A stretch of DNA of 50,804 nucleotides, filler included, from Jimgerdemannia flammicorona (GCA_003990765.1; 2 parts of 2 records of this genome joined end to end with filler, not necessarily neighbours in it); one strand, 5' to 3'; counted from the whole stretch's first letter, positions 1,004 through 42,986 are shown. The notes: a model not told the origin generated them from the sequence alone. Program-made: numbers and translations.

Positions 1004-1420
1004 AGGATTTGGATTGGAGGATTCAGTTGAAGGATTCGGATGAGGATTCGGATTGAAGGATTCGAATTGGAGGATTCGAATTGGAGGATTTGAATTGGAG
1101 GATTCGAATTGAGTGATTTGAATTGAGTGATTCGGATTGAGTGATTCGGATTGAGTGATTCGGATTGAGTGGTTTGGATTGGAGTGGTTCAGATGGGTGA
1201 TTCAGATGGATGATTCGGATGGGGCGATTTGGATGGGGCGATTCGGATTGAGTGATTCGGATTGAGTGATTCGGATTGGGGTGGTTCAGATGGGTGATTC
1301 GGATGGGGCAATTCGGATGGGGCAATTCAGATTAAATCCGAGTTGATCCGGATGGCTTCGGATTTGAGATTCGAATCAAACCGTCATGTGATGAATCGAA
1401 TCCGGATTTGATTCGAATTG
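1004..1420. repeat. Subterminal tandem array of GATTCGGATTGAGT-like (~14 bp) units of the hAT element
   Basis: Many GATTCGGAT/GATTCGAAT motifs between the TIR and the transposase start; typical position for transposase-binding sites. Confidence 0.85.
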
Positions 1421-1437
1421 ACTCGTTCAGAGCACTA

Positions 1438-4400
1438 GTCTTGTAGCAGCAGATGATTTCTCAGTATAGGAAATCAGCTATAGAGAGGGCATTGGCTTCT
1501 TATAATGCTCCTGCCTCTATCCATTTGGTGAAGAGGTCTACAATAACTATAATATAGTGGTTTCCTGATAGTGTTACTGGTAGTAGTCCAATGATATCCA
1601 TTGCAATGTGGTGGAAGGAGATAGGCTCAATTCTTGATAATCTGGGTACCTGGTCTTGCTGATCTTGTTTCTGTTTTTGGCACTTGTCACACCCTTTGAC
1701 AAATTGGTGCAGGTCTTCTTCCATCTTGGGCCACCACATGGTTCTTCTTACCTTGTCATATGTATTGGTTCCTCCTAAGTATCCTTGCTCGTGTACTTCC
1801 TTCATTACTTGATACTTCTTGTGTTCAGGTATTACTAGCTTTCCTCCTTTTCTGAATATAGTGTTGTCTAATTCAAACTGTTTCCATGTCCGGTTGATGA
1901 TGGTGATTGTCCAGGGTTCAAAGTGGCTGGGCATCTTCTGTTGCTCAAGGTAGCTGATTAATCCATAGTATAGCTCCTTATTCATGTTGAATAGTCTTGA
2001 TGGGGATATTTCGGGGTGTCCTTGAGAGTGCATCAGTATTGGTATTGGTCTTTCCTGGGTAGTGCTTGACAGTACAGTCATATTCTTACAGCCTATAGAT
2101 TCATCTGGCATATATTCCTTTGGGGTTCAGAGTGTGGAATAGCCAGGCAAGAGTGGAATGGTCTGTTTGAATGGTGAAGTGTTTTCCAGCTAGGTAGTAG
2201 TGGAACTTGTCTACTGCCCAAACTACTGCTAAGCATTCAAGCTTGCATGACTCGTAGTTCTGTTCCACTCTGCGGGTACCTCAGCTTGCATAGGAGATGA
2301 CATATTCATGTCTATCTTTCTTCTGAGCTAAGACTGCTCCAAGTCCTATAATACTCACATCTGTCTACAGGATGAATTCTAGGCTCCAGTCTGGTCTTCT
2401 GAAGATGGGTGCTTGGGTCAACCTGGTCTTGAGTTTATTGAAGGTTTCTTGGTGCTCCTTGGTCCATTCGAATTTGGTCTCCTTCTTCAGTAGCTCATAG
2501 ATAGGTACTGTAATGTTGGAGTATCCTTTGATGAATCTTCTGTAGTAGCTGGCCAGTCCAAGGAAGGCATGGACTTCTGTGGTTGTTCTGGGTCTTGGAT
2601 AGGCTGCAACAGCCTCGATCTTCATGGGGTCTGTGTGGATTCCGGTCTGGTTGATGAGGTGTCCTAGGTAGGCAATTTCCTGAGCTGTAAACTTGCATTT
2701 CTTGGGCTTAATGTAGAGGACATGCTCCTTGAGCCTCTTGAGGGCTAGCTGTATGTGATTGATATGTTCCCATGCAGTGTTGCTGAAGATGATCACATCA
2801 TCAACATAGACAAAGAGCCATTTTCCAATCTCGGTGCTGAAGACTCTGTTCATCATTCACTGGAAACTTGCTGGGGCATTGCACATTCCAAATGGCATTC
2901 GCAGATAGATATAGGTGGCATCAGGTGTAATGAAGGCTGATTTCTCACTGGCATCTTGAGTGAGACCAAACTGATGGAAGCCTGAGAACAGATTCAAGAT
3001 GGTGTAGTATTTGGCTTCACTTCCAAGAGTGGTAAGGATTTCTTGAATATTTGGCAAGGGCTGCTTATCCTTCTTAGTGATGGCATTGAGTTTCCTGTAG
3101 TCAATGTAGAGTCTTGGTGCAAACTCTCCAGACTTGCGTCCTTTCTTTGGGGCTAGGACAATGGGTGAGGCCCAGGGGCTGATAGCTTGCTTGATGATTC
3201 CAGCTTCTTCCATTTCCTTGAGTTCTGCTTGCAGCTATTCTCTGTAGGCAGGTGGTATAGGTCTGGCTTTCTGGTAGATGAGCTTGGTATCACCAGTGAC
3301 AACTTCGTAGTAGTACTTGGGTTCTTGATTGTGGATATCCCTAAAGTCTGTAGCAAGTACTCCTTCATTCTGGTGCAGGATCTTGAGAAGTTGTTCCTCC
3401 AGGGGAAAGTTTTCTCCAATGGTATATGTGTGCTTATTCTGGTCCTTGTCTTTCTTATGCTCAAGTTTGGTAATCTTGGTGGCAACATAGACTTCTCTTC
3501 CAGTAGATCCAAAGCCTTGTTCTCCTCTCTTGGTCTTGATAAGTTCAATGGCTTCTATGATCTTGGGCTTCTTGACTTCATGGATCAACATCTGGCCAAT
3601 CCTGTCATGCTTCTTGACTTCAAAGGGGGTGGTGTGGTTGTGATTTCTGACTATGAGGAAGATCTCACCAATGTAATCAGGGTCAATTACTCCTCCTTCA
3701 ACTGAGATTTTGCTTTTGGCCAGACTGCTCCTGGTCTTGATAATTCCAACATGGTTTTCTGGTAACTTGACTCCAATTCCAGTGCCAAGTAGGGTGGTGG
3801 TCTGTGGTTCAAGGGTAGCATCTTGAATGCTGGCAAGGTCTATTTCTATGGCTCCTTTAGTCTTGTATTCTGGGATCTTAGCTTCGGAGTGAAACTTCTT
3901 GACCTTGAGGGTGATGTCTGATTCTTGTTCCTCCTCATTGTCACTATCAGCTTGAAGCTCTGGAGGCTGGTCATCTTCTTTAGCTTTCCTTTTTGCTTCA
4001 GCAGCTTCTTGCTCATATTTCTGTTGACAGATTTTCCTGACTTCACTGATACAGGACCAGCAGTCATTTAGGTATTCAGAGCAGTACATTCTAGTACCAT
4101 GGGGGCATCTTCCTTGAGGGGTATAGCCATCAATGATCTTGTTGTACTACTGCTCATCTGTGAGCTTGGGTGTCTTGTTCTTGTTCTTGTTCACTAAGTG
4201 CATGAAGGCCTCTGTGTCCTCTTCATTTCCTTTCTCCATATCTAGTAGGACTCCTTTGTGGACATTGATAGAGACTCATACCTTTCTTCCTCTGTAGTTG
4301 ATTGGTATCTTCTGGGCATTGAGGTCAATGATGGCCTTGGTCTTGTGAAGCCATTGGTTGTCAATAAAGATGTCATAGTTGGTGGCACTTGTAACAATCA

Positions 4401-6003
4401 CATCTACTGGAATGGTAGCTCCTCCTATCTTGATGGGGACTTCTCAGATTTTGCCAAGGGGGGTAGCTCATATACTATCTGCTGTGATATAGACCATCTT
4501 GGTAGACTCTTCAATGTCCCAACCTAGGTGGTCAATTGCCTTCTTGCTCATGAGGCATCCTCCAGTACCAGTATCAATAATGGTATCAAAGATACAATCT
4601 TCAATCTGACATGGGGTATAGGCTGATGTCTTGCACTGGTCTTTGGATTCTTCACCTGAGTTCTTGGATTCTTCCTGTGCATTGTGAGCTTCTACAATCT
4701 TATACTCTTGATTCTTGGCAGTAGTTGCAAGTTCTACTCTCAATTACTGTCTGAAGGTAGGGACTTCAGCTAGCTGTCCAAAAGTGGTATTGACCTTCTG
4801 TTCCTTGAGGTCCTTGTAGATGTCATACTGGTGGATCTTGGTCTTGCACAGCTTCTGTTCCTTCTTGCTATCACTTTCTCCTGAGACTGGAGTAATGCCT
4901 TCAATAATTTAGTGGGCAGCTTCATCTAACTCCATGTCTTGATCAATCTCCTTAGATTGAGTCTTGCTTTGAATAGTGATAGCTGGGGTCTTCTTTGGTC
5001 TTCTAACTGGCTTGCTGTTACTCTTCTTGTCATAGGGCTTGGATCGGGTTCTGGTACCTTCAGTAGCAGGGTAGAATTCAAGCTTCTCATAGTATTCTTC
5101 ATCATCAGCATCACCGATCTCCTTTATGACTACTGCATTGGTTTGTTCTCTGGTTCTGCTAGTATTGCTTGGTTGGGCTTTGCATCTTGTTTCAGTCATG
5201 CAACTCTTTGCATAGTAGCCTTCTTCTCCACATCTGAAGCATGTGATATTGTATTCTTCTGTAGTAGCTGCAAATCTCTGTACTGGTCTCCTGTTAGTGC
5301 TTCAGACTTCTCTAACAACATCACCAAGGTGTGCAGTCATCTCGGCGAACTGCTTGGCAAGTTCCTCCACTGGGTCAGCTTTGGCTATCTTGGGGGTAGG
5401 TGAGGTTGGTTGTCTGTTTACAACTGTGGTGGGTATGATACTAGTTGGCTTTGATGACTCCATCTTGATGTCAGTTATTTTCTCTATTGAGTGTTTGGCA
5501 GGGTGTCTGGCAGTCCAATATCTCTATGCAAAGACCACTTTCTGATCAAGGGTCAGCATAGCTGGAGTAGATTGGATTGCTAGGGCAATTTTATGGTGAA
5601 CTTCTTTGAGGAAAGTTGAATCTGCTATTTGTTCCTTGAGGCAGTCATCATAGCCAGCCAAGATAATCTGGTGGCAAATTCAGGTATAGAATGAGTTGAG
5701 ATCTTTACTAAGTCTCTGGCAGATAGTATTGAGTTGATCCTTGAGAGCTTGCTTGATCTCTTTGGTATAATATGTTGTTCTGAGGAAGACCTTCATGTTG
5801 GCAAGTTTGGCTGCACCAGTATCAGCAATGGTGGCTGCATTAAACTTGTCTCTAGTAGGTCTTCTGAGGCTGACTGATAGAAGGGCCAATTGAGCATCCA
5901 CACCAAGGGCTTGTATGGTGGTGAATTGTTCAAAGTCTTCAATGAAGGTTAGGATTGACTCTTCAGTAGTATATTCATAGAATGTGGGGAGATGCATTTC
6001 CAT
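1438..6003 (-). pseudogene. E1 gag-pol polyprotein with premature stops
   Basis: Gag MHLPTF..FIEDFE; zinc knuckle CFRCGEEGYYAKSC (~5200-5245); protease IIDTGTGG (~4555-4580); RT ISPWASP/DYRKLN/MPFGMCNAPASFQ/YVDD; RNaseH LECLAVVWAV; IN HEQG..CDKC and IAMDIIG..VDLFTKW. Confidence 0.92.
3499..3909 (-). CDS. dUTPase domain in E1 pol, between protease and RT (open frame)
   Basis: Trimeric dUTPase motifs: GAIEIDL, KTRSSLA, GGVIDPDYIGEI, DRIGQM, RGEQGFGSTG. Confidence 0.93.
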
Positions 6004-6120
6004 CTTGTCTTGAATTCTTGCAGAGGTGACTCTTGTAGTCAGGGTAGTTATTGTGGGGGTTGTTCGTTTTTCAGCTTGAAAGTGAGGGATTCATGAATCA
6101 CTAGCCAATGGGCACCAAGT

Positions 6121-7824
6121 TGTCATGTAGTGGTCACTAAGTCCTTTAAATATGCCAGATTCTCTTCAAGGTGTATCTCTTAGACTAACTCAAGTTTATT
6201 ATATGTAAGCAAGTTCTTATTGGAGTGCCTTCTCAAGGTCTTATAGTCCTCAAACTTCTTATCTTTAACTGTCTTATTATCTCTTAGATTTCTTGCAAGG
6301 AAGTGTGTATAAGTGAAACTGGAACTGACTTTATTTCAGAGGAAATAAGAGGGGTATTTATACAAAATATAATTCAATGGTTGCTAAGATATAAAGCTAA
6401 ATATAAATTCCAATAACTACTAAGTTCCAGAGTTGATACTGATGGTTGTACAGGTTCAGAATACTGGTATTATCTAGTGTCACATAGTGCTGAAACAATT
6501 TTGCATCACCTCAGAATACTGGTGCTGATATTATTCAGTGTTATATGAGAATACTGGTGCTGGCATTATCCAGTATAATAAAGAACTTAGAGCAGAAAGT
6601 TCAGGACCATGGGGGCTTCATCCTCATCATCATCATTACTAAAGGAGATGATATCTATGAACTCGTCATGTAGATTGCACATTTCGCATATATTGCATGA
6701 GATGATATCATTGCCAATGATGTCATCATGCTCGGCTATGGCAGGGAAATTGGGAACAAGGAGATCTGGAGCTCTCCAGTCTATAAGGTTCTCTTCCACA
6801 AAATAGGGAACAAATGTGGGGTCTTGGGGAGGTCTAACCTAGATGCTTGGGCCTTAGAATACTGAGATCAATCCTTGCAGGAATTGGTCTGGGTTGTCCT
6901 GAAGGATAGGATACCAGAAGTCTTCTACTTCTTCACTGTTGAGGGTGATAGTGGACTGGGCTTCTGTAGCCACCCTGGCTTCTAGTGTATTGATATGGCA
7001 GGATGACAGGTCTCTGAAGTCTGAGACTCTAACATACTCCAAGTTGGGGATTGACTATAGTGCATGCCTGAAGATCTGATGGATCTTCTTAGCTGTCCTC
7101 ATTTTGCATATATCCATGGGAGTGGTATCTTGTAGCTCTTGGGTACTGGCCTGTGGGAACTCCTGACAGAGGAGGTTTCTTATTTTGTACTCCTGCTATA
7201 TTTGGAGACATTCAGTAGCAATGGTGATCCTTGTTTATATTTTGTGGCAGTAGAGAATAAAGTGATAAGGGTCTGCAGTACCCAGATTGACACTAGGAGT
7301 CCTTCTTGAGCAGATACCCATGGCTCTTCTGATGTTTTGGAACATTCTTTCCTCAACTGAGATACCTTGGTAATTTCTTGACCTTGAGGTTTGGCAGGTA
7401 GCAGGCATTTCATTTGTGGTAAGTCTTTGAGCTATTTTGGAATTGGTGGTTCTTGTTGGTTGCTGCTACTGTGGTTCCTTGATCCTTCTTTTATATTCTT
7501 CAAGATGCTTATACTGTGGTCACAATAACTCACAGTTGATCATCATTGCTCATCTCATATACTATATGATCTTCTTGTGCTCTGATCTAGTGACTTATAA
7601 GGAAAGGCTGTCTCCTGTGCTGATGTCATCATTCTGGAGTCACAATTACAATACTAAACTAGTACAGAGGCTAGTGTGACTACTATAATATTACTGGCTG
7701 AAGAGAGCTGAAATTAGTGCAAAATCATTATGATCTTACTAATATTCTTATATTTTCTAGCATATAACCTTACTGGTGACATGAATCCAATGATGTCAGC
7801 TTGGTGATGTCATCATTTGTGACA
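6121..7824 (-). repeat. E1 5' LTR, long (~1.7 kb)
   Basis: Inverted termini TGTCA/TGACA; TATAAATACCCC (6362-6351) followed by AATAAA (6335-6330); three AGAATACTGGT repeats at ~6459-6575; PBS 3 nt after the LTR end. The partner LTR is outside the window, so the 7824 boundary is unconfirmed. Confidence 0.65.
6587..7558 (-). pseudogene. Decayed ~320-aa accessory ORF upstream of the TATA box in the E1 LTR region; function unknown
   Basis: ORFs 6587-6799 and 6854-7042 share a frame, and the reading extends to ~7558 through a few stops and one frameshift: ...RTAKKIHQIFRHAL*SIPNLEYVRVSDFRDLSS..., ending in an acidic tail with CNICEMC. Confidence 0.6.
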
Positions 7825-8163
7825 TTGTAATGTATTTTCATTATAGGCAGTCCTATTAGAGACTTTGGAGAACTTGTCTAAGAACTAGAAGATCTTATTA
7901 CACAAGCTTAAAATTGTACAGTCAGATACCCTACAGTAGTCTCACTAAGCTCACTTATAGAACCTTTATCACCAGCTCTTACAGAACTAAAAGCAGCTCC
8001 TTCAAGAATACTTAGGCTCATTTCACTTTGCCCAAGGTCCAGAACTCCATTCTCAAGATACTCAAGCACCCCCATTTCCAGTAATAGTTCAGAAAGTGAA
8101 TCAGAGTCAGAATCTGAATCAGAATCCAGACCAAAACCAGAATCAGAAGAAAGTGATGACAAA

Positions 8164-9434
8164 ATGGCCACCTTATTGCCAATCTTTACAGGATAACCAG
8201 AGGAAGACTCTAGAGAATTCCTTGATAGAATTGAAGGAATTGCAGCTCTGAGAAATCTCTCAGATGAAAGAAAAATCACTATCTACAAGGCTCAGCTCAG
8301 AGAACCAGCCAGAGGAATTTTCTACTAAACAACAAATAACCCCTACTCAGAACTGATAGTACAAATATAAGCAACAGCATCCTATGAGCTGAAGTATGTA
8401 GCCATAGTCCACTAGCTCATTGAAAAATATGTAGAAAATGAAACCCACTACAAGGTTCAAGAATCCATCATAGAGATGAAGGTAAATCTTAGAGAATTAC
8501 CCAGAGCCTTCTTTATAAAAATCCAGAAGAGAATGCATATAGCCAGATTCAATGCCACCAACTAAGATATCATAGGTCTAATGATCTTTATGAATGAGAT
8601 TCCCCTGAACATTGCCCAGCATGTCTGCACTCTAGACATCAGAAGGTCTGAAGAATAAGTAGATATAGTCTAAGAATTCTTTGATGTCAGACAAGAAACT
8701 CTCTGGAGTGATTATGATAAGAAGGATGATAAGGAAGACATCTTAGTCAAAGTCCTATAGGGACTCCTTCAAGGATAAGAGAGATCTGAAGAAAGAAGGC
8801 CAGCCAAGAAAGGAAAGAAGGACAGAAGCAAAATCTAAGACCTCAGTTCCAAGTTGGACTGATTGGTTAAATAGATTGAAAAACTCACCATATATGAAAA
8901 TCAGAGTTATTAAGATAATAAAGGATATCTACCTCAGAGGAGCCAAGATTATCCACTTAGAGATATATAACAGGAGCTATCAGCAGGAAGAAAGAAGATA
9001 CTCTGTCTGAGATAGAGCTCAAGTTCAATGCTTTCACTGTGGATAATTCAGATACTATCTACTAAATGTGACAACAAAAGAAGTGACCAAAGGGATTTAG
9101 AACTACTAAATTGAAGGAATGAAACCTCAGTACAAGAAGGCTGAAGCTTATCCTGTTGAAAACTTTGAAGAAGAAAGCAATAGTAAAGACTATAGTAACC
9201 TAGACTTGTATCCAGCCAAAGTTACTATCCAGAAAACAGTTTACCTAGTAGAAAAAAGGAAGAGACCTATAGGAAGACCATCCAGAAATATCAGCAGAAG
9301 AATTATCCAAGAAGAAGACAAAGAACATGAAGAGAAGCAAGTGGAAACACCTCTCTGAACTCCCTTACCTTTTGTTCTTAAGATAAATGAGCTGCTACCA
9401 GAGAATGAAGAAATAGAACAAGAAGAACAGGAAC
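8164..9434 (+). pseudogene. E2 gag
   Basis: MATLLPIFTG*PEEDSREFLDRIEGIAALRN...; decayed zinc knuckle QCFHCG at ~9026-9070. Confidence 0.8.
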
Positions 9435-9887
9435 TATAACAATTTCACAGTCATATTTAGTCTTAGTACATTTTTGCATCTTTTAGTTAGTCTTTTCTTA
9501 TCATTTCTTAAATATTCTACTATATTCCACCACTTTTACTTGCTTAAAAACCTTCTCTTAGTGCCCAAATACTACTAGAATATTTTTGTCTTTCCTTGAC
9601 ATCAAGTATCTTGTCTTAGCTAATTATGGAACCTTTTGGAACATTGTAGAATAGCATTAGTCAGCTTTACCAAGAACCTATTTCTTGGCATTTCTCTTTA
9701 TTTTCAAGATCCTTCTGGATCTTTCTTTCAGATTATATATAAATATTCTTGTTCTCTGCCTGAATAAAGCTCAGAATATTTTTCTCTCAGAAATTCTTCA
9801 ACCTTTAAGTATCTCTTTGAGCTATTTTAGGCCAACCAGAACTTCCAGATTTAGCTGCTTTCTCTTAAAAAAACTAGAACTGTTACA
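9435..9887 (+). repeat. E3 5' LTR
   Basis: TATAAC (from TGTAAC)...TGTTACA; contains TATAAATA and AATAAA; aligns end to end with 15062-15526. Confidence 0.95.
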
Positions 9888-9977
9888 CTTGATAGTAGTG
9901 GTGTCATTACATCTTACTTTATTAAGAAATCTCACACAAATTTGGAAACCAGTCACAACTAGTCATATAAATCTGAA

Positions 9978-12900
9978 ATGAGCCATGAAGAGTCAGCCTA
10001 TCAGCTAGACCCCTCTGTTACAGAAGAAGCAAGAGAACTGCAGCTTAGTATAGAGGATATGATCAATACTATGACCCACCAAATTCAAGAACTTTAAGTA
10101 CAACTAGAACAGCAGAAAACAAGAACTGTGAGTACATCATATTCTACTATAGTATTAGTCAGTTTCAAGTCACTCAAGCCAGATACCTTCAACAGTCATC
10201 AAGGAGGACTATCTACAGATGTATGGATCTTCTAATTAGACTAATACTTGGAGCTTACAAGAATGGAAGAAGATATGTAAATCTAATTTGCTGCTATACT
10301 TTTTTGAGAGAATGCAGCCATTTGGTAGTACAATTATATCATAATTATATCTATGTACTTATATATATGAATCAGAGATTGGGAAGCTTTCAAGAGAGCC
10401 CTTCATAGGCAGTTCAAGCCTGCTAATACTACCAAACTAGCCAGAGATAAGCTAGCAAACATCAAGCAACTCAAGTCTGTGCAAAGCTATAATATATAAT
10501 TCCTGTCAATCCTACTTGAACTACTAGTGATAGTGGAGAATAAAAAGATAGACTGCTATATCTAAGACCTGAAAGAAAACACATGAGTCAAGGTTGAGCT
10601 AGAAGAGCCACAAAATGAAGCTATGAGGATTACTAATAGGTTTGATGATATTACCTTTGGCAACTGCTTTGAACCAGAATACTGTAAGAAGAACTACTTC
10701 AAGAATCACTACAAGAACTAACCAAGGATAGTTGGCCTGATACCAATGGATTTAGACACTATGAACAAAAAGAACACCAAGCTCACCTCTAAAGAAAAAG
10801 ACTGTCTGAAGAAATCTGAGCCTGTTTCTTCTGTTATCAAATAGGATATATTGCAACCAAATATCTTAAGAAAACTAGTGAATTCTCAAGACCAGTCACC
10901 ATATTGTCTAAGAATATATCTGTCAACCCCACCATCAGTTAACCTGAGCTCAAGATCAAGAAGCTCATCCAAAGGCCCAGGCCCCTCAATATCAAACAGA
11001 AGGAGCTATTGGTCTTGATCTATACTTAGTCAAATAAGTCACTATTCCAGTTAAGGGCTGAACTCTGGTGTCTACTGGAATTGCAGTTCAATATCCTGAA
11101 GGACATTATGCTAGAATTGCATCATGATCAGGACTCAGTATCAAATATCATTTAGATGTAAGCACTAGTGTCATTAATCCAGACTTTCAAGGATAAGTTC
11201 AAGTTCTGCTTATCAACTAGAAGGATCAAGACTACACAGTTAAGAAAGGAGACTGAGTTGTATAAATGATCCTAGAAAAAGCCACTTAACTCAAGATTAC
11301 AGAAGTCCAAGAACTCTCTGAAACCAAATGAGATCAAAAAGATTTTGGCAGCACTGATCAAGCAGCAAGTCTTAGTGAAAATCATGCTCAAGCTATATTT
11401 ATTTTCAAAGGTCTAGTTAAAGGAAAAGAAGTTCAAGTACTCATAGACAGTGGAGCTATAGAGAACTTCATCAATCAGAATCTCATCAAAAGCCTCAAGA
11501 TTCTTATCAAGCCTATACTCAAGAATAATAGTATAGTCACTGCAGATGGTACTCTACACTTCATTGAGTCAATTGCTGCCAAACTATTCATCAAGATCCA
11601 GAAATATTAGAAATGGGTAGACTTTGAAATTGCATTACTAGGAGATCATGATCTGATCTTAGGAAAATCCTGGCTTATAAAACATAATCTAGACATTGAT
11701 TGATATAAGAATGAAGTCACCCTACTCTAAGATAGAGCTAATATCACTATCAAGACAGACAAGACCATGAGCAAGACTCAGATTGCAACACTGTTAGCTA
11801 TACAGTACAAGAGAGCACTCAAGAAGATAATGTATACCTTTATTGTAATGGTCTGTCTCAAGAAACAAGACAAGAGACTATCAGTCAATAAAAGTATTAA
11901 GTTACTGCTAGAAGAATTCAAGGATGTCTTTCCAGATAAGTTACCTGGTCTACCACCTATACAAGAAGTTGATCATGAAATCAAACTGACCCCAGAAGCT
12001 GTAGCACCTAAGAAATATATATACTGCATATCACTACTTGAAATTGAAGTAGTTAAGAAGGAACTAGAAGAACTACTTGCATGAGGAGCTATCCAGCCAA
12101 GCAAATATCCTTATGGCTCACCAGTCTTATTCATTAAGAAAAAGTATGGTACCCTGCAAATGTGTATAGACTATCATATACTCAACAAACTCACTATCAA
12201 GAACTACTATCTACTACCCTTGATTGATCAAATCTTTGATGCTCTCAAGAATGTCAAGTACTTCACTAAGTTAGACCTTATGTCAGAATACTACCAGATT
12301 CAAATCAAGTCAGAAGACATTCCTAAGACTGTATTTATAACCCCCTTTGGACTCTACAAATTCCTGGTCTTAGCATTTGGTCTTACCAATATATCCACCA
12401 TATTCTAGACCCTAATGAACAAGATATTTAAAGACCAACTATTTATTTTCCTGTTGGTATATATTGATGATATCCTGATCTTTAGTGTAACTAAAGAAGA
12501 ATACTTCAAATATATTTGAATAGTCCTGGAGATCCTACAAAAATACAAGCTTTATGCTAAGCTCAAGAAGTACAAATTCTTCAAGGAATAAGTCAAATAC
12601 CTTGGCCACATTATCTCTATACAAGGAATTCAAGTAGACCTATACAAGATAGGAGTAATTGAAGAATGGCCCATTCTGTCAAATCTCACAGAACTCTGAT
12701 CCTTCCTTAGTCTAGCTGGCTACTACTGCTACTTTGTCAGAAACTTCTCTGACATTACCAAGCCACTGACTAATCTCATGAGAAAGGCTCTGCACTCAGA
12801 CCACTGTACCCTATATCTGGGACCTCTTCTGTCAACAAGCCTTTCAAGAACTCAAGAACCACCTGATCCATGCTCTAGTTCTGTATAATGTAGATCAAGA

Positions 12901-14760
12901 CCTAAAATTTATAGTCATTACTAATATATTGAATTTTGCCATTAGAGCAGTCCTGTTATAAGATAATGGCAAAGAATATCATCCTATTACTTTTGAGTCC
13001 CACAAGTTGGCCCTAGCTGAACAAAAGCTAGCCACTCACAAGAAGGAACTACTGACAATAATATATACACTAGACTACTGACAATACTATTTAGAAGATA
13101 TTGAGTTTGATATTATTACTGACCATCAATCTCTTAAGTATATTAATACCCAATCTACTTTATTATGTCTACAACCCAAGTGGAGTCTCAAGCTTCAAAC
13201 CTTTAATCTGATAATCATCTACAAGCCTGACAAGACACTTATAGTACCAGATGCCTTATCAAAATGCCCAGATCTTGCCACAATCATGCAAGTTACCTTG
13301 GTATCAGAATTCCTAAACCAAATCAGACAAGTTTACAAAGAAGACATAGTTGCTACTAGAGTTTTCTCAAATGAGCTCAAGGATATATATACTGTTGAGA
13401 ACAACCTGATCTATTATCAAGATCAAGTCTACCTATCTGAAAACATGAACCTATGCTATAAGATTTTGTAAGAACACCATGACTCTCCTCTTGTCAGTCA
13501 TCTGGGAATTGAGAAGACTGTCAAGAACATTCAATACTGCTACTATTGACCAAGCATAGTCAAGGAAATCAAGAACTATATTGACAGCTGTGATCTATGT
13601 TAGCACAATAAGTCTACCAACCAAGTACCAGCCAGTTTGCTACAACTACTGCCAAATTCTACTAAGAAATTTGAGCAAGTTATTATGGACTTTATAACTC
13701 AACTACTACAAACTAAATCTGGTGCTGATACTATTATCATATTCATTGACTGCCTGATCAAGACCATGGTTGCTGAATCAACTACTACTAATACTACTAT
13801 ACCCAAAATTACAAGAATCTTCTTTAAGTCCATCTTCCATCACTATGGCCTACCATGAGTAATTGTCAGTAATTATGACTCTAAGTTCACTATTCACTTT
13901 TGACAAACTCTCTTCAAGTCCCTGGGAATCCAATTGGCTATATCTACTATCTTTCACCCACAAACTGATAGACAAACTAAGCACATGAACAGAACTCTAG
14001 AACAAATACTTAGAAACTATATTTCTTATAAGCAAGATGATTGGAACCACTATCTGACTTATATGGAGTTTGTATATAACAATACCATCCAATCATCTAC
14101 TAGTCTTTCTTCTTTCTAGTTACTCTATGGTCAAGATCCCAAGACCCCTACAAGTCTATTCTCTTTCAAGAAAAGCAGTTAAATATAAGTCTCTACTACC
14201 AAGAACCTTACAGACAAAATGGATGAACTACTTAAGATTATTACTGTGAATCTTCAGAAGACTCAACAGCATCAAGCCAAGTATACTGATAAGAAATGCC
14301 ATAATATTACTTATACTGTTGGAGATCAAGTCCTACTATCTACCAAAAACCTCAAGATATAATCTCAAGTCAATCACCCTTCAAACAAGTTCCAACCTAA
14401 GTATATTGGATCCTTCAAGATCACTGAACAAGTCTCTGCATCCTCCTACTACCTCAAGCTACTTGAAACTATAAGAGTATACCCAGTCTTTCATATGTCA
14501 CACCTCAAGACCTGGAACCAGTCACCACCCTACTCTGGTCAAATTCCTAAGTCTTTTGTCCCTATGATTATTGAAGACCATATTGAGTATAAAGCTGAGA
14601 AAATTCTTAACAAATGAATCTGCTACTGCTATTCTGAATACCTAGTCAAGTGGATGAGTTACTCTAAATATAATACTACCTAGGAACCACTGGTCAATCT
14701 CAAGAACTCTCAAGATCTAGTTCAAGACTTCAAGGCAAAATGTATTGCTCAATCTCTGTA
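9978..14760 (+). pseudogene. E3 gag-pol with C-terminal chromodomain
   Basis: Gag KPDTF; knuckle CFFCYQIGYIA (~10823); PR LIDSGA (11441); RT CIDYHILN..YIDD; IN HPQTDRQTK; chromodomain YKAEKILNK..EYLVKWMSY..T*EPLVNL (14585-14740). Confidence 0.92.
10946..11358 (+). pseudogene. E3 dUTPase domain between nucleocapsid and protease
   Basis: ELKIKKL..QTEGAIGLDLY..STGIAVQYPEGHYARIAS*SGLS..VINPDFQG*VQVLLIN..KKGD*VV*MI..DFGSTD. All five motifs are recognisable, and the stops fit CGA>TGA or CAA>TAA changes. Confidence 0.92.
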
Positions 14761-15061
14761 GTGACTTCCTTAAATTATCGACAACCTATGGCAATAACTG
14801 TATCTTATACATTGGAAGTTTACTTTGGGACCCCAGAATTAGCAGAATATTTAATAAACAAGAAGTCCACTGAAATGAAGCTATTAGCTGAGTTTGAACC
14901 CCTCCTAGTTGATTAGTCTAGTAATAGGTCCTCTGCTCTATATGAGGATGACCAATCTCTGTTAATGCATTGATATAAGTTTGAGAAATTTTGGTTAAGT
15001 ATATTTAGTCTTGTGTTACCTAAGAACTCAATGAGGATATTGGTTTTTAAGAAGAGAGAGA

Positions 15062-15526
15062 TATAACAATTTCACAGTCATATTTAGTCTTAGTATATTT
15101 TTGCATCTTTTAGTTAATCTCTTCTTATTATTTCTTAAACATTCTACTATGTTCTGCCACCTTCTACTTGCTTAGAAATCTTCTCTCAGTGCCCAGACAC
15201 CACTAGAACATTCTTATCTTTTCTTGGTACTAAGTATCTTATCTTAGCTAGTTATAGAACCTTTCAGAATATTATAGAATAGTATTAGTCAGCTTTGCTA
15301 AGAATCTATTTCTTGGTATTTCTCTTTCTTTCCAAGATCCTTCTGGATCTTTCTTTCAGATCATGTATAAATATCCTTGTTCTTTACCTGAATAAAGCTC
15401 AAAATATTTTTCTCTCAAAAATTCTTCAAGAATACTTAAATCTTTAAGTATCTCTTTGAGCTACTTTAGGCCAATCAGAACTTTCAGATTTAGCTGCTTT
15501 CTCTTAAAGAAACTAAAACTATTACA
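15062..15526 (+). repeat. E3 3' LTR
   Basis: Direct repeat of 9435-9887 with many transitions and a ~12-bp indel. Confidence 0.95.
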
Positions 15527-15531
15527 GAAAC

Positions 15532-18500
15532 CTACTGTCCCAAAGCTCAAGAAGAAGTATACCTCAAAGACTATACCCAGAGACATCTACAATAAAGTCT
15601 GGCAGAAGATTCAAAAAACTAAGATAAAAGTCTCTCTTCTATAGTTCCTATAACTGATACCAGCCAGAGTCCAAAACAAATCACTAGATCTAGCACTGGC
15701 CAAGTTCCAATCCCACAATAAGAGCCAGCTTCCATTTCTAACCAAGCTGCAGAAAGACATGTCAGCACTTATCTATATGGAGAAATTGGAGGATAAAAAG
15801 TAAAAATTCTTATAGATATAGGAGCAGCTGTCTGTATTATTGTCAAATGATTCCTGGATACCCTCCAATGGCCCATTGATGGACCATCTAACCTTAGCAT
15901 CATAGTAGTAGATGGAGCCCAAACCCAACCCCTTGGAGAAGTATGAAACATTACTATCTCTCTTAGATACATTTAGTTCTCTATCCTGAAAGCTATTATT
16001 ACTGAAGCTGTCACCTATAACATGATCCTTGGTACTAACTGAATGAAGGAAATGAATGCAGTTATCAATATTGGTCAACAAGTACTCAAGTTTGACTACT
16101 GAGACAAGAAGTATAGAGTTAAGGTGACCAGTTATGAGCAATTGAAGAAGAAGAAAAAGATAACTATTTAGGAGGAATATGCTAGTAGTGAAGAATCTAC
16201 TACAGAAGAGAAGAAAGAATCCAAAGATGGAAATAATCTCAGACTTAATCCCTGAATCAACCTGGTGAATTATAGGTCAGAAGATAATATATGGGCCAAG
16301 AACACTATCTCCATTACCATTGGAGCCATTATAGGAGAAATCAAAGAATGCCCTACCCTATCTGCCTCAAGAGATATAAGTGTCCCAAGCACTCCTCCAG
16401 GATTATTGGGTTAAGAAATTCAACTGGCACAGTCTGCCCCAAGTGTAGAAAAAAGAAAAAGAAATGCAAATATGTCCCAGAGACACCTGCAGCTGAAGCT
16501 GCAGAAGTATAGGCAATTTGAGAACAAGAATCATCTGAGGAAGAAGAAGCTCCTAACTAAAAAGTTCCTGAACAGAAAGCATCTGAAGAAAAAGAGGTCT
16601 CTGAACTTATTCTCTAGGATGACTCTTACTAAACACTACCTGAAGATAATGATCCTTGGAATATAGAAGAAGGACCCAGCACAATCCCCATTATTCCTAA
16701 GAAAGAAACTCACCAAGAAAGGGCTTTTCAGCTAGGAAGATATCTACACCAAATAGTCTTCCACTCTCTTCAAAACTATTGCTATTAGTGTCATCTATTA
16801 GACTAGTAAGAAAGACAGAAACCCCAAAGACCAGAAACCCCAACCATAGTTGCACAGTCAACTACCTTCCAAGAAGTTACCACTAGGTTGCAAAGTTGAT
16901 TTAGAGGACAAGGTCTCTTCATCCAAACAGAAGTATATCCCTTGTCTACTCTTCCCCCAACTTATGACCAAGATGGATACCAATTCCCAAGATAACAAGA
17001 AATCAACAACCAGGAACAGCATTTTTGAGTAATGGAATATTGTAACTATAGAAGATACTCAGACTGCTGAGACTGCAGACATCAGAAAATTCACCTCAGT
17101 CATGATATTGTAATATATACCTTGAAGAGAGAAGATAATAGAGGCCAGATCCAAAAAAGTCAGACCAAGAAGTCAGGAAGAAGGACCCTTAAGATCTATG
17201 ATTTAGAAGAAGATATTCTAGCTCTTATCAGATATACAATCTATCAAGAATGGGTAGAAGATGCCACCAACTTCATAGAAGCCCTAGACTCTATAGGAAG
17301 AAGAGAAATCAACTATCTCTAAGATCCCTCTACTGGAGCCAGATGGCCACACCTCAACCTCAGAGCCTGGAGGCTCTCTGCTAGTAGAGTCTTAGTCCAA
17401 GAACAGTCCAAACTCAGTAAGAATGTTATCTAGTATGCCCTTCTACATCCTAAGGCTAAACCCCTGACCAAAGCCTACCTAGAAGATATAAGATATGATC
17501 TTTACAGTCTGGAAGATGAATCCATCAAGCTTGGAAAAATATTCATGATCAAAACTGGACTAGTCATATAGCCACCCTAAGGAGCTTATATCCAACTGAT
17601 CTCAAGATCTAGACTTGCCAGATAAGGAATAACCATAGAAGGAGAAACCATTAATCCAGAATATAAAGGTAAAATCAAGGTCATCCTATATAATAGTAGA
17701 ACAGAAGATTATCTAAGCAGTCTTCATGAAGATCAAGACCCCACAATTACAAGAAGTCTCCAAACTGACTGAAGAAATAAGACAAGCCAAAGGATTTGGA
17801 AGTTCAGACAAAAAAAAAATACATCTCCTTCAAATCAACTACCTCAAGAGGAATGCCCCCCAGTAAGTACACTGCCAACTAGTCAAGCTATATAAAAACC
17901 TCATCCTGGAGCCTGGAGAACAAACCACCTTTGAAATCTTTGCACCATCTGATCTCAGAAACCTCTTCTTTGAATCCAATGAAGATATTCTATACTTGGA
18001 TATAGAAGGGCATACATTCTCTGATAAGATGAACCCAATATACTCTCAAGCAATCAACTAAAGTTGGAAAACTATCATCTTGCCAAAAGAAACCAATCAT
18101 AGAATATCTGGTGCCTTTTCTCAATTGAACTCATAGAGAAGTTTATGAACTAAACTTATTAGGAAATGGTAAAAGGTCCCATAAGAAAGGAAATACCCCT
18201 CTGTGATTCAGGAAACAGTGAAGCCTTCTATCAATATTGAAGAAGAATTGACACCCCAATAATGGCAACAACTAGTAGAACTCCTCAACAAATATCAAGA
18301 TATCTTTACTACTGATTATGGCAACCTGCCATACAACCCATCATATTATTACAGCATAAATATAGGAAATACAATACCTATCCAACAGAAATCCTATAGA
18401 ATACCCTATTATTTAAAAATATTCAAAAAGGAGTACATTCAAGAACTCTTAGACAATGGAGTCATCTGATCCTCCACCAGTCTCTGGGCCAGCTCTATAC

Positions 18501-20695
18501 TTATTGTACTAAAGAAAGGAGGATAGAGACTCTGTGTAGATTACAGAAAACTCAATTCAGTCACTGAAAAGGATACCTATTCTTTGCTCAGAATTGATGA
18601 CCTCTTGGATCAGTTACAAGATACTAGATACTTCAGCAGTATAGATCTTTTTGTAGGATTCTATAAGATCTCTATAGATCCAAAAGACATTCAAAAGACA
18701 GCCTTTCTTGCTCTAGAAAAACTGTTTGAATATCTCTGAATACCCTTTGGACTTTGCAATATGCTCTCCACCTTCCAGAGGATGATAAATTCAGTCTATG
18801 TTCTCTTGATCCACCACTGTCTGATTGTATACATGGATGATTCCAATATCTATTTAGCAAATTTTGAGGAAGACCTGTACTATTTAGAAGAATTCTTCAA
18901 GCTTATCTATAAGAACTACCTAAGACTCAATGCCAAGAAATGCTATTTTGGAAAACAGAAACTTGAATTCCTAGATTTATAGTTTTGAAAGAAGAAATCC
19001 ATACAGATTCAAAAAAAAATCAAGAAGATCAACAATTGGTCAGTACCCAAGACCCTGAAGAAAATATTATTATTTTTGATGCTAGTATCCTACTATAAAA
19101 AATTTATCAAGGACTTTTCCCAGATTGCTGCCCCAATCAGAGTCCTTCTTAAGAAAGAATTATCTTATAAATAGACAGAATTACAAGAGAAAGCTTAAAG
19201 AACTCAAGAACTGTATGACCACAGCACCAATTCTTGTATATTCTAATTTACAGAAGTTATTCATCTTATATACAGATACTTCCAAAGATGACCTAGGAGT
19301 AGTTCTAGCCCAAGAAGGATCTGACCAATAACACTATGTAATAGCTTATATAAGCTAAGCTACTAATCAGCAACAGATGAACTATGGTAGTACCAAACTA
19401 GAATACTTTACAGTTATATGAGCAGTTATCCTATTCAAGCATTACCTCATCAAAAAAAGGTTTACCCTAATCACAGATCATGTAGCCCTCAAATAGCTAT
19501 TCAATTGCAAGAAATCTATTAAAATCTTAGTCCACTAGATTCTTATCCTTCAGGATTACAAGATCACTATCATCCAAAAAGCAGGAAAAGCTCACAACAA
19601 TGTTGATGTACTTTCCTATCAGCCCCAATAAACTAGAAGAAGGGCGTTCTGAGGAACTATATCCTAAAGGAAGCTCCTCAGACTGTCAAAATACAAGAAG
19701 ATCTTATCTGAAAAGAATATCAAAAAGCCCACCAAGAATAGGTAAATATAGAAGAGAAGTTATGAATAACACACCAACATTGGTCCAATCTCAGAGCACA
19801 AGTCTGGGATATACTCAAGAAATGTGGCATCTGCTAGAAGTATCAAGGAAGAAAGAACTACCAAGTACTACTGCAACCAATTGTACTATCAGACAACATC
19901 TTTTAGAGATGAAGAGTAGATGTAATTAGACCCCTACCAGTTATACTAAGAAAAAACAAGTATATTCTTATATTTGTAGAACATCTGACCAAGTGGCCCA
20001 AGACTTTTCCAATAGAAATCACAGATGTCTTAATTATTGTAGGCCTTCTCTATAGACTCACCCTCAGATATAGACCTCTAGAAGAACTCATCTCTGACCA
20101 AGGCACAGAATTCATCAATAATATAATTATAAGTTATATCCAAATTCACAAGATTCACCTCAAATGGACTACATTATATCACCCTCAGACTAATGGTATG
20201 ACAGAAAGAATGAATCAGATCATCAAGAAAGAACTTGCCTGAGTCAATTCTACCAACTGAGACCTTTGCTTATATGAGATTCTATGGGAAATTCAGAATA
20301 CTCTTGCTGCCTCTACTAAACAAAAGCCATTCAAAATAATGTTTGCTAAGAAAGTCAGAACTACTAACTATGAAAATCTCAGAGACCTCCTCCAGAAGGC
20401 AGAATAGTTATGTAATCAGGTCCAAGTTCAGATTACCAAAGCTCAAGAAAGATAAAAGAAGTACTATAACTAGAAACAGAAGGACCAGAAGATCAAGATT
20501 AGAGATTAAGTACTAGTTTGGAGAAGTATGATTGAGACAAACTTTGCTACCAAATTGGAGCCCAAATGAGAAGGACCTTATCTTGTATACAATATCAGAG
20601 GAACCAGTATCTATTTAAGAAGTATGGATGAATGAACCCTAAAGATACCAGTACACATCAATTGTCTCAAGATATACTTCTCTCCACATTATAAA
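15532..20695 (+). pseudogene. E2 pol (PR, Cys-rich region, dUTPase, RT, RNaseH, IN)
   Basis: PR KILIDIGAAV..MILGTN (15770-16100); RT LCVDYRKLN, PFGLCN..TFQR, YMDD (18830-18842); RNaseH LYTDTSKDDLGVVLAQ; IN core YHPQTNGMTERMNQ; C-terminal KLEPK*EGPY. Confidence 0.88.
17420..17810 (+). pseudogene. E2 dUTPase domain between PR and RT
   Basis: YDLYS..IKTGL..ISRSRLAR*GITIEGETINPEYKGKIKVILYN..RQAKGFGSSD; motif 4 is partly deleted. Confidence 0.85.
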
Positions 20696-24994: not shown

Positions 24995-25094
24995 GTAACT
25001 GCTAACTAAAATGCTATACTATATTAGGAATTAGATTCAGATACTATAATCAAATATCTATCTTCTGATTGTTATTTCTAATTTAGATCAACTA

Positions 25095-25355
25095 TTATAT
25101 TAGTTATAGAACCTTTTGAAATATTATAGTCATCTTTATTAAGAACTACTTTCTTGACTTTTCTATATATTTCTAAGATTCTTCTAGATCTTTCTTTCAG
25201 ATTTTATACAAATATTCTCTTTTTTTACTCAAATAAAGCTCAGAATATTTCTTTCAAAATTCCTTTAAGACTATTTAAACTTATGAGTATATACCTCTTT
25301 AAGTTACTTTAGGCTTACCAAAAACTTCTAGATTTAATTACTTTTTTTTTAAAAA
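25095..25355 (+). repeat. Diverged LTR related to the E3 LTRs, cut by the gap
   Basis: Shares collinear GATCTTTCTTTCAGA, AATAAAGCTCAGAATATTT, TTTAGGC and AGATTTA blocks with 9435-9887. Confidence 0.8.
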
Positions 25356-25455
25356 NNNNNNNNNNNNNNNNNNNNNNNNNNNNNNNNNNNNNNNNNNNNT
25401 TAATTAATTAANNNNNNNNNNNNNNNNNNNNNNNNNNNNNNNNNNNNNNNNNNNN
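25356..25455. other. Assembly gap: 44 N + TTAATTAATTAA + 44 N
   Basis: Six-frame-stop linker centred in a 100-base spacer; artificial. Adjacency across it is unproven. Confidence 0.97.
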
Positions 25456-25526
25456 TTTTTTTATAGTCACTCGGACTCATCCTTTATTACCCCATCTATC
25501 CTATAAAAGTACAGTGATCCCACCCC

Positions 25527-28500
25527 CTATCCAATCCCCCTAGGGGGGCCCCTCCCCTCTACCCCTTCTCGATGAAACACTACTCTATCGAATACAATCC
25601 CCACCCTCCCACCACTCTGTTCACATATCCTTGCCACCAAACCTTACTGCTGCCCCTCTGAAGGGCCCCAACCTACCCACCATCCAGTCATCAGATCCCC
25701 CAACAGCTCCTCCCACCTTAAAACCTTCTTCTGCAGTCTCATCTACCACCCCTCCTCAAACATAGATAGCCAATATCCCGCCAATCCCACCCAAACTGCT
25801 AACACCCATCTGATAGTGAGCCAACTATCCCCCACCTCCCCCCACCAGCTGAGATCTCAAGTCCTCCCAGCAATCCCCTTCACCTACTGGCCCATGCTCC
25901 ATACCTAGTCTATTCCCTATTTCAACCCAAAAGTCTCCCAAAACCTCACACTCTCTCAGCCAATGTTCTGGCATCTGCACCAAACCCCCAGCTTGCCCTA
26001 CATTGTAACACTCCTCACAATCGAAACAGCCACTATCCACCAGATGCCCAGTGTGGAAATTCAGCATGACATTCCTCTGCAGTATTCGCCACCACACCAC
26101 CCAGAACTTGGGGGGAAGCCACCACTGCACCTCAGCACTCCAAGACCAGATACCTGCCCAGTCTCACTCCTCGCCGATCCTGACTGCCTGCCAACTGCTT
26201 GGCCAAAGGTCTTGGCCAAGACCCTGTTGATACTCCACTCTGTCCCCAATATCAAAAGCAGCAAGTGGAGTACCCCCCAGTAGCAGTCTATCCCATCACC
26301 ACATACAAGGACCCCACAACACCTCTCCCTCATTGTCTTGCCAGCACAGATCAATTCTGTGCACTCCATTGACCACTCCCCACCAAAAGCCCTTAAATCA
26401 CAGCTGCTGAATTCCATTGAGCCCTATCAAAGAGAGTAGATCTCCTGAGGACCCTCAGGGGGAGGTTCTCATCTCCCATACCTTCTGCATCAGAAGTACC
26501 CAACCCTCTCTCTGTAGTTCAGCTGCTCTCTTCAACCACCAGGCTTGCAAGCAGTGCAACCTCTTAGGGAAATCCATAAGGCCAAGCCCTCCCCTGTCCA
26601 CTGGTGTCGCAAGAGTATCCCAACTAATCTGGGACCTCCTCTCTACCCAAATCCAATCCCTAGCCACCTTTGTCAGCCTCTTCACCACCCAAGCTGGGAA
26701 GTCTAGGTGGTATACCACATACCACAGCTTGGGGAACCAGTATGTATTCAGAATCGATATCTGCCCTACTAGAGAGATATGGTAGCCTCCCCAACCTTGA
26801 AGGGCCTCCCCCCAAATAGACACCCTGCTCTCCCACCATACTTGTGGCAAGACAGAACCATACACAGAGAGGAAGATGCCCAGATACCATACCACCTCAC
26901 CAGTAGGGACAATTGTTCCAATGATGTCCCCACCCATCAGCCCATTCTCTAGCACCATAGTCTCATACTTATGCCAGTTGAGCTTTACCCCAGAGTGATC
27001 CTCATACCATTCCACCATCTCCTTAAGTGCCTCGACATCTGCCACAGACCCAAGACCAACCACTATATCATCTGCAAAGGCTCCCATCTTCCACACTATG
27101 CCATAGATAGAGAGCTCCACTACCTTCTGATGAATCCTATCCATTAACAGTTCCAATGAGAGAGCATAAAGAATAGGGGACAAGGGGTCCCTCTGAGGAA
27201 CCCCTCTTCTCAAGGTAAACACCAGACCATAGTGACTATTACACATTAGTGCCACCTGACTGCCCTTGAGCAGATTTACTATAGAAGCCTGAAACCCTGA
27301 AGGAACACCAATACAATCCAGCACCTTGCCCAGCCAAACCCGCTGGACCCAGTCATAGGCCTTCTCCTGGTCCAAAAAGACCAACCTTCCATCCAGGCCA
27401 CAAGTCTGGGCCCCTTCAATGATACCATGTACCCAAGCAGTCCCATCTCTTATAAGCCTGCCTCCAACAAAGCCCCACTACTCCTCCCCCAGCACCTGTT
27501 GGGTAACCTTTTGCAGCCTTGCAACAACCACCTTAGTCACCATCTTCCTGTCCATGTAAGCATAATCGGTCACCAGTTCTTCCAATCTTCTCTCCTCCTC
27601 TTGTCTTTGTACAATAATGCCACCAGCCCAAGGTCCTGCTCTCCAACCCACTCACCACTCTGAAGAACATGATCACAGAGAGCAGTCATCTCCTCCAAAA
27701 TACCAGAGACCTTGACCATCTTCTTCTAGAAGTCCCACAGTAGTCCATCCTCCTCTGGTGCTGTTCTAGTTTTAGTTGCCTCAAAGACACTCTGGACCTC
27801 CTCACCTCACACTGGCAAGGCCAAGTCATCCAGTCCAGCCACTTGCGGTGGCCTCCATTCCCTTAATACATCTTCAATAGCTGTCTCATCAGCACCCCCT
27901 TCATCCTCACTCCACAAACCCTGCCATCTCTCTTTCAAAATCCCTAAGATTTGTTGTGTATCATATACCATGTCCCCATCGGCATCTAGGACTCCATCCC
28001 ACTGATGTCTCACCCTCCTAGCATTGAGCAGATAGGATAAATATCTAGTGGGCCGCTCACTCTCCTCAAGCCCCTGCCACTGTAGCCTAGTAGCCATACC
28101 TCGCATATGCACCTCCTCCTCTTCTCTCAGCACCTGTTGCAGTTCCAATATCTCCAACTTAATCCATGCTAACCTCCAATCCTCCACCCCATCAGAAGTA
28201 AGTAAACCTGCCCAATCTATTTGCAATCTCCTCAGCCTGCTGGAAGCATACCTCGTACACTTCCTCCTCCTTCTCCCAGCTTCTCTCCCAGCCTCTTTCA
28301 ATCTCATCTAATGGATACCCACTGACAAATCCTCACACCTCCAGTAAGAAACTTTCACCTAAATGTCCTCTACCCATAAATCCCACAACCCCTTCTCAGC
28401 CAGCAGGGAGGAGTTGAGGCACCAATGTCCGAGTCCATCTCCACTCCCCCCAAACTGCCCCTGCCCCAACAGACCCCAGTAGTCTGACCATGGGCACTAT

Positions 28501-29159: not shown

Positions 29160-29190
29160 AAGGAATAATGTTAAAAAGTGATCCCATTCT

Positions 29191-31150: not shown

Positions 31151-31313
31151 CTACTACCAGTTGAAGGCCCTAGGTCTACCTGACCTAGTACATGCACCAG
31201 TATATTCATTGCTTTCCATGTTGCTAGTCACCTCTCACCAAAAACATTGTCAAAAGTATTACCTGAGTCTTGTGTCACCTGAATGTTACTGGTAAAAGGT
31301 ACCACAGGCAAGT

Positions 31314-42951: not shown

Positions 42952-42986
<35 letters not shown>

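Follow-up and report, generated by a model that had tools for sequence, protein, structure and literature searches.

Decayed Ty3/gypsy retrotransposons with dUTPase domains in Jimgerdemannia flammicorona: probable inheritance from old acquisitions

The window analysed here is a stretch of 50,804 nucleotides from Jimgerdemannia flammicorona (GCA_003990765.1), in which two parts of the genome are joined with filler. It holds three dead Ty3/gypsy retrotransposons of three families, here called E1, E2 and E3, and on a reading that we consider probable as a whole each of them once encoded a dUTPase of the trimeric type within its Pol region. An earlier note on this DNA took the presence of the enzyme in three neighbouring elements as a sign of repeated capture under a pressure specific to the host. 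The sequences compared here make it probable, instead, that the elements inherited the domain, which would go back to old acquisitions with no local capture; that three of three elements in the window carry it would reflect the gypsy lineages that populate this host.

A Pfam scan of the six-frame translation, with stop codons read as X throughout, places the dUTPase family PF00692 at all three sites named in the earlier note, with 87 bits in E1, 84.5 bits in E3 and 37 bits in E2. All three scores exceed the curated cut-off of 22 bits, so the matches are not due to chance. The elements are indeed different from one another, as had been stated: in a tblastn search with the E1 polyprotein, the reverse transcriptase (RT) of E1 is 36% identical to that of E3 and 33% identical to that of E2. 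That search matched E1, E2 and E3 only and brought no further gypsy pol to light in the 50.8 kb. The order protease (PR), RT, RNase H and integrase, with an RT of the RVT_1 type, is present in all three by Pfam, though the integrase of E1 ends after its zinc domain. The description of two architectures also stands, by Pfam and a zinc-knuckle pattern: PR-dUTPase-RT in E1 and E2, and nucleocapsid (NC)-dUTPase-PR in the chromovirus E3.

The main evidence for inheritance comes from the phylogeny of the RT-RNase H region. Of 7551 candidates from a search with this region of E1, 3206 proteins matched at E up to 1e-20, and the best 120 were examined; our own dUTPase profile found the domain in 18 of these 120, upstream of the RT in 18 of 18. 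A FastTree phylogeny was built from 121 rows, 118 of them from the database, with RT-RNase H matches covering at least 330 of 415 positions, and a careful IQ-TREE analysis from 53 of those rows, namely all 22 that bear a dUTPase plus 31 others picked after the FastTree result had been seen. In the careful tree E1 lies inside a clade of 20 rows with support of 100/97. The dUTPase is present in E1 and in 17 database proteins of this clade; the other two rows are N-terminally cut and unscorable, and no row lacks it. Since every scorable member carries the domain, that of E1 appears to have been inherited with its lineage, and the idea of three captures is not supported for E1; within this clade the dUTPase is, as far as these sequences go, a lineage trait. 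The named RT neighbours of the clade, elements of the early-diverging fungi Rhizopus and Rhizophagus that serve as outgroups, are without dUTPase, and the background view of the enzyme as sporadic in Ty3/gypsy elements holds.

E2 is weakly placed as sister to the E1 clade (81/68 in the careful IQ-TREE analysis, 94 in FastTree), with which it has the layout PR-Cys motif-dUTPase-RT in common. In five full-length members of the clade, which run PR-spacer-dUTPase-RT, the spacer measures 241-341 residues, as compared to 138 in E1 and about 470 in E2, and its Cys-rich motif recurs in P0003 and P0018, in part in the fragment P0021 and as a variant in P0006. E1 and E2 would thus stand within, or beside, one RT-defined lineage in which a Cys-rich spacer precedes the dUTPase and the order PR-dUTPase-RT is fixed. 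In the careful tree a branch with support of 97/93 lies between E3 and a group of 42 rows to which E1 and E2 belong. The RT nearest to that of E3 comes from the chromovirus P0265, and a chromodomain is present in P0307, a member of the P0265 cluster. E3 would represent a chromovirus of another lineage.

E1 reads on the minus strand and has these parts:

1400..6003, minus strand: E1 as a whole, a non-autonomous Ty3/gypsy relic with gag, PR, dUTPase, RT, RNase H and the start of integrase
4618-5991, minus strand: gag, 38% identical to the N-terminus of P0169 (E 1e-89)
4300-4611, minus strand: aspartic protease (Pfam RVP_2, E 1.4e-5, 25.3 bits against a cut-off of 20.3)
4027-4107, minus strand: Cys-rich motif C-x7-C-x6-C-x2-C-x7-C in the PR-dUTPase spacer (pattern search)
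3499-3909, minus strand: dUTPase domain (PF00692 match 3499-3885, E 1.2e-24, 87 bits)
2659-3120, minus strand: RT (Pfam RVT_1, E 5.2e-28)
2080-2466, minus strand: RNase H (Pfam RT_RNaseH_2, E 3.5e-31)
1665-1832, minus strand: zinc-binding domain of integrase, the last recognisable part of E1 (Pfam Integrase_H2C2, E 1.5e-15)

The element is truncated within the integrase, near 1400, beside a 14-bp tandem repeat array at 1030-1334, and 16 in-frame stops interrupt it between 6093 and 2050. Its dUTPase is the only intact copy of the three, without a stop codon and with all five motifs, including the motif-3 Asp; it keeps the two residues that are invariant, and those that are nearly so, in an alignment of 51 sequences, and its best match in the PDB has an E of 4.4e-22 (phmmer). 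An AlphaFold model of the domain (mean pLDDT 94.9, pTM 0.83) was aligned by Foldseek with solved dUTPases at TM scores of 0.84-0.91 and E down to 6e-12, in keeping with the jelly-roll beta fold. To judge from the motifs and the predicted fold, only the E1 domain still looks functional today, in an element that is itself dead. The longest open frame of E1 (3235-4146, 303 codons) lies around the dUTPase. Where 16 stops fall in about 1350 codons, chance alone should leave a longest stop-free run of about 270-300 codons, and since the frame is about that long it is no sign of co-option; domestication of this frame was considered and rejected on that ground.

E2 reads on the plus strand, in two parts:

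8300..9434 (approximate), plus strand: probable 5' part of E2, gag-like and cut off by E3, assigned by eye from the translation
15527..20680, plus strand: 3' part of E2 (Pfam; end approximate, read from the translation)
15779-16048, plus strand: PR (Pfam)
16363-16467, plus strand: Cys-rich motif in the PR-dUTPase spacer (pattern search)
17446-17809, plus strand: dUTPase relic (PF00692 match 17464-17706, E 3.4e-9, 37 bits, profile positions 6-86 of 129)
18515-18973, plus strand: RT (Pfam)
19185-19559, plus strand: RNase H (Pfam)
19916-20185, plus strand: integrase core (Pfam)
near 20600, plus strand: GPY-type end (translation)

The stretch at 8300-9434 is the probable 5' part of E2; to the eye its translation shows a gag-like open frame and a decayed string resembling a zinc knuckle, and it gave no Pfam match and no tblastn match to the gag of the clade relatives. 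No chromodomain was found in E2 by Pfam at E up to 0.01. The dUTPase has three stops in its first 83 codons, which cover motifs 1-3, and the motif-3 Asp has become Asn; about eight residues are gone between motifs 3 and 4, a frameshift lies at 17692-17696, and motifs 4-5 follow in the next reading frame, up to 17809. The stretch between PR and dUTPase (16049-17445) is unusually long, at about 1.4 kb or 470 codons; apart from the Cys-rich motif it gave no Pfam match at E up to 0.01. Neither E1 nor E2 has a recognisable pair of long terminal repeats (LTRs): blastn found nothing, and local alignment scores of 36 and 28 did not stand out from the 33-46 of shuffled controls.

E3, also on the plus strand, has landed inside E2 and is the only one of the three with recognisable LTRs:

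9435..15526, plus strand: E3, complete at its ends, with the order LTR-gag-NC-dUTPase-PR-RT-RNase H-integrase-chromodomain-LTR
9435-9887 and 15062-15526, plus strand: LTRs, 86% identical
10269-10691, plus strand: gag (Pfam)
10823-10864, plus strand: decayed CCHC-like nucleocapsid knuckle (pattern search)
10966-11358, plus strand: dUTPase relic (PF00692 match 10975-11355, E 7e-24, 84.5 bits)
11386-11730, plus strand: PR (Pfam), followed by RT, RNase H and integrase
14588-14737, plus strand: chromodomain (Pfam Chromo, 26.9 bits against a cut-off of 25.1, E 4.7e-6)

Its insertion splits E2, with the 5-bp flanking repeats GGAAC (9430-9434) and GAAAC (15527-15531), taken as a target-site duplication, and a polypurine tract lies ahead of the 3' LTR. 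The dUTPase has nine in-frame stops in 131 codons and, as in E2, Asn in place of the motif-3 Asp, while its best PDB match has an E of 3.4e-29 (phmmer). By these changes the dUTPases of E2 and E3 are relics of the trimeric family rather than working members of it. A third LTR of the E3 type, solitary and more diverged (73% identity), lies at 25101-25355 and adjoins runs of N at 25356-25399 and 25412-25455.

Comparison of the dUTPases themselves bears on whether there was one origin or several. A word-index search with the E3 region gave 282 candidates, none of them at E up to 0.001, likely because of its nine stops, and its relatives were taken from an exhaustive search run with the E1 domain. 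The best match of E3 is P0074 (112 bits, 50% identity), in which the dUTPase runs directly into a DSG protease; the next relative, P0050, has the order CCHC knuckle-dUTPase-PR. Against the PR-dUTPase-RT clade E3 reaches 67.6 bits at best, as compared to 93-112 bits against other dUTPases (93-103 for non-gypsy forms), and against solved dUTPases of eukaryotic type it scores 84-104 bits where E1 scores 60-82. Motif 2 reads RS[SR]LA in E1 and E2 and RSS[LM]A in their clade and P0197, whereas E3, P0050 and the copia-borne domains described below have the cellular PRSGL type, with one extra residue. The E1 domain scores 48 bits against the chain 'POL POLYPROTEIN' of 1f7d, which we take to be from feline immunodeficiency virus (FIV); since this is below the scores of 67-82 bits for eukaryotic cellular enzymes, E1 and the lentiviral dUTPase are not close relatives.

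A dUTPase tree was made from 78 rows, comprising all retroelement-borne dUTPases whose domain is near-complete, 17 neighbours that were chosen, and one in four of the remaining rows, with 14 proteins having tandem dUTPase domains left out. Both dUTPase trees put E1, E2 and E3 in three separate places with weak support. When all PR-dUTPase gypsy rows, E1 and E2 among them, are forced into a single clade apart from 38 non-gypsy rows, the log-likelihood falls by 34.1 units, with a p value of 0.189 in the approximately unbiased (AU) test (p-AU). Because the AU tests, including those given below, decide nothing, the case for two acquisitions rests on the position of the domain, the chromodomain, motif 2 and the asymmetry of the scores. 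The differing Pol position, the motif-2 signature and the asymmetric scores fit at least two insertion events; by this comparison two old acquisitions at most are indicated, and one is also compatible with the data. The dUTPases would then have reached this genome with their elements, from old acquisitions that most likely numbered two.

Several results weigh against inheritance in this form. The support for E2 as sister of the E1 clade is just 81/68, and a quick IQ-TREE run puts E2 in a neighbouring unresolved group; in both dUTPase trees its domain lies outside those of the clade, and P0047 is within the E1 clade by RT and outside it by dUTPase. The dUTPase-bearing pair P0197 and P0214 stands apart in the RT tree, so gains or losses must have occurred more than once. 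The relatives of the elements all come from environmental contigs, which restricts the view of the lineage's host range. Adding E3 to the single dUTPase clade described above brings the cost to 47.9 log-likelihood units (p-AU 0.104), and uniting the 22 dUTPase-bearing rows as one RT clade costs 4.28 units (p-AU 0.395); neither arrangement is rejected. These two results speak at the same time for one ancient capture in the ancestor of all dUTPase-bearing gypsy elements, with the domain later crossing PR in the E3 lineage, or the reverse, and it fits such a history that the two dUTPase positions are adjacent, on either side of PR. We consider it unlikely. E3 bears a chromodomain, and the RT closest to its own is chromoviral, on the far side of the 97/93 branch from the E1 and E2 rows; its motif 2, of the cellular type with the extra residue, is unlike that of E1, E2 and the clade; its scores against non-gypsy dUTPases far exceed those against the clade; and the published view, in the passages of PMC2864245 that treat the matter, prefers several sources.

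Independent capture by each of the three elements, under a host pressure of which a high dUTP:dTTP ratio or the attack of uracil excision on cDNA would be examples, is in our estimation very unlikely. It draws on the facts that all the gypsy elements found in the window (3/3) carry a dUTPase, at two Pol positions, and that the three domains are only 29-36% identical in pairwise comparison and separate in both dUTPase trees; moreover, an excerpt of a preprint on Entomophthora muscae reports PF00692 enriched along with retroviral protease domains, so loads that differ between hosts do exist. Set against it are the composition of the E1 clade (of 20 rows, 18 with dUTPase and none without) and the layout and motif signature that E2 shares with E1, while the E3-type and E1-type layouts both occur in other public contigs and in other phyla, and the AU tests leave a common origin unrejected. 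The two architectures are thus found in unrelated public contigs and in published elements of other hosts, and a host-specific pressure is not supported; repeated capture is unsupported for E1, doubtful for E2 and unnecessary for E3. In the comparison of dUTPase and RT trees that the earlier note had proposed, the dUTPases fall in three places, and one clade congruent with the RT tree, which the note had named as a refutation, is not rejected with sequences as degraded as these (p-AU 0.104-0.395). A different account, in which the domains serve as spacers or regulators (compare the signalling function of phage dUTPases) or were recruited by the host for its own use, and are not nucleotide-pool enzymes for the element, seems to us extremely improbable. 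The longest open frame of E1 does cover the dUTPase, but such a length is expected by chance and the flanking Pol is dead; the catalytic Asp is lost in E2 and E3 only alongside general decay, and E1 and its relatives retain the full set of five catalytic motifs, which suggests that catalysis was under selection while the elements were active.

The way in which the region has decayed also speaks against the uracil pressure. CpG observed/expected is 0-0.09 in the transposon stretches (1400-25000 and 26000-37000) versus 1.04 in the gene-bearing 38000-50804, and of the 62 differences between the two LTRs of E3, in 466 aligned positions, 54 are transitions and 8 are transversions. This points to CpG-targeted C-to-T hypermutation, through methyl-cytosine deamination or a process like repeat-induced point mutation, and not to uracil damage. 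Deamination of methyl-cytosine yields thymine, which neither dUTPase nor uracil excision touches. Being CpG-directed and dominated by transitions, the local hypermutation has no bearing on uracil, and the caution with which the earlier note treated a link between it and the dUTPases was well placed.

Elements with a dUTPase in Pol have been known from fungi for some time. Novikova and Blinov in 2008 are said to have found such elements in Phanerochaete chrysosporium, and Tmt1 of Tuber, treated by Riccioni et al. in 2008, reportedly contains a dUTPase as well. The passages available from Novikova, Smyshlyaev and Blinov 2010 (PMC2864245) note earlier cases in Phanerochaete and Tuber, describe gypsy families of Postia placenta with the dUTPase at the N-terminus of Pol, at its C-terminus or between PR and RT, and propose independent acquisition of these dUTPases from different sources. 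As described there, PosPlaTy3-3, -4 and -5 resemble the window elements in having the dUTPase in Pol, in several families and at differing positions; the N-terminal position is similar to the layout of E3 and the PR-RT position to that of E1 and E2, while the C-terminal position is not seen in E1-E3, and the families differ, the comparison being one of layout alone. Fungal chromovirus dUTPases are also mentioned by Llorens et al. (PMC2774666).

Outside the fungi, excerpts of Rodriguez, Kenefick and Arkhipova 2017 (PMC5408684) give the dUTPase of the rotifer elements Juno, Vesta and TelKA as lying between PR and RT, and excerpts of Arkhipova and Yushenova 2019 (PMC6431247) give the order PR-dUTPase-RT for giant planarian gypsy-like elements and for fungi. 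In these animal elements, as far as the excerpts describe them, the position between PR and RT is fixed across lineages, as in the E1 clade, and the extra zinc knuckle that follows the dUTPase in Juno is loosely comparable to the Cys motif that precedes it in E1 and E2. They differ from the window elements in having animal hosts, and neither an open reading frame 3 (ORF3) nor an env-like gene was seen in the latter.

The dUTPase of betaretroviruses lies upstream of PR as a fusion with nucleocapsid, that of non-primate lentiviruses such as FIV and equine infectious anaemia virus lies between RNase H and integrase, and that of ERV-L follows the integrase. These enzymes are of the same trimeric family and are likewise contained within gag-pro-pol, with exclusion of uracil from cDNA as the presumed role in both cases, and the NC-dUTPase-PR order of E3 mirrors the betaretroviral one; unlike retroviruses, the window elements are retrotransposons without env. 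The range of retroviral dUTPase positions is stated in PMC5408684, citing Hizi and Herzig 2015.

In an active element the dUTPase would, by analogy with these systems, be translated as part of Pol and form a trimer in or with the virus-like particle, either released from the polyprotein or carried on it inside the particle. There, at the place of cDNA synthesis, it would split dUTP into dUMP and pyrophosphate, so that less uracil would enter the cDNA, and uracil excision and strand breakage might be avoided. The benefit would be expected where cellular dUTPase is low, for example in non-dividing cells. Such a role in non-dividing cells has been shown for retroviral dUTPases, according to passages of PMC2864245 and PMC5408684 that cite Payne and Elder 2001 and Hizi and Herzig 2015.

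The searches also brought up dUTPases, and another enzyme of the nucleotide pool, in other settings. Polyproteins of the Ty1/copia type (RVT_2), namely P0004, P0005, P0007 and P0009, carry a dUTPase 35-42% identical to that of E1, which in P0004 lies at 620-749, between the SH3-like domain of integrase (497-566) and the RT (961-1185); a literature search at the level of titles and the openings of abstracts found no report of a copia-borne dUTPase. In the gypsy Pol P0199, which comes from an environmental contig, residues 79-141 match a NUDIX hydrolase domain (45 bits, cut-off 21.1). PR (228-337) follows shortly after it, and the dUTPase of E3 has this same position. No report of NUDIX in an LTR retrotransposon polyprotein was found at the level of titles, and the P0199 domain hints at a wider habit among gypsy elements of carrying nucleotide-pool-cleaning enzymes. 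Among the 150 best matches to the E1 dUTPase, 14 have two or three tandem dUTPase domains per chain; the chains named are P0014-P0023, P0029, P0031, P0037, P0042, P0118 and P0144, and one is from ginger, Zingiber officinale. Fusions were seen with a deoxynucleoside kinase (kinase-dUTPase, P0040), with an Rv2179c-like exonuclease (exonuclease-dUTPase, P0092 and P0150) and with a dual-specificity phosphatase (dUTPase-phosphatase, P0133).

Elsewhere in the window, a minus-strand frame at 1-700 resembles a hAT transposase and continues past the left edge, and a non-LTR-type reverse transcriptase frame lies at 26455-27477, also on the minus strand; both were recognised by eye. GC skew is strongly negative (-0.33 to -0.57) in 25000-37000, and internal repeats of 1.4-2.4 kb, with 67-69% identity, pair 28404-30785 with 34180-36552, 29353-30789 with 31320-32757, and 31305-33119 with 35114-36922. 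Host genes with introns were read by eye from open frames at 38733-41300 (plus strand) and 44800-49000 (minus strand). By eye they include a Ski2/Mtr4-like DExH helicase, one exon of which matches generic helicase clusters only, and a protein kinase whose N-terminal part is FHA-like.

That fungal gypsy elements may have a dUTPase at varied sites in Pol, and in several families per genome, has been known since 2008-2010, and the window supplies three more examples, two of them badly decayed. What is added is an RT clade with a dUTPase in every scorable member, and with it the point that clustering of dUTPase-bearing elements need not imply local capture. One may tentatively go further and suggest, though we regard it as rather doubtful, that the clade of E1, and perhaps of E2, is a large unnamed lineage without chromodomain in which the dUTPase is fixed, and that the host filters for dUTPase-bearing lineages, of at least two origins. 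If so, there would be a real effect of the host, exerted through lineage sorting rather than through capture, and one possible cause would be reverse transcription in non-dividing cells with little dUTPase of their own; the dUTPase and its Cys-rich, zinc-finger-like spacer would be as fixed in the Pol of the E1 clade as the dUTPase is in betaretroviruses. Should dUTPase-bearing lineages prove to dominate in this host, that would bear on why some retroelements need a dUTPase of their own.

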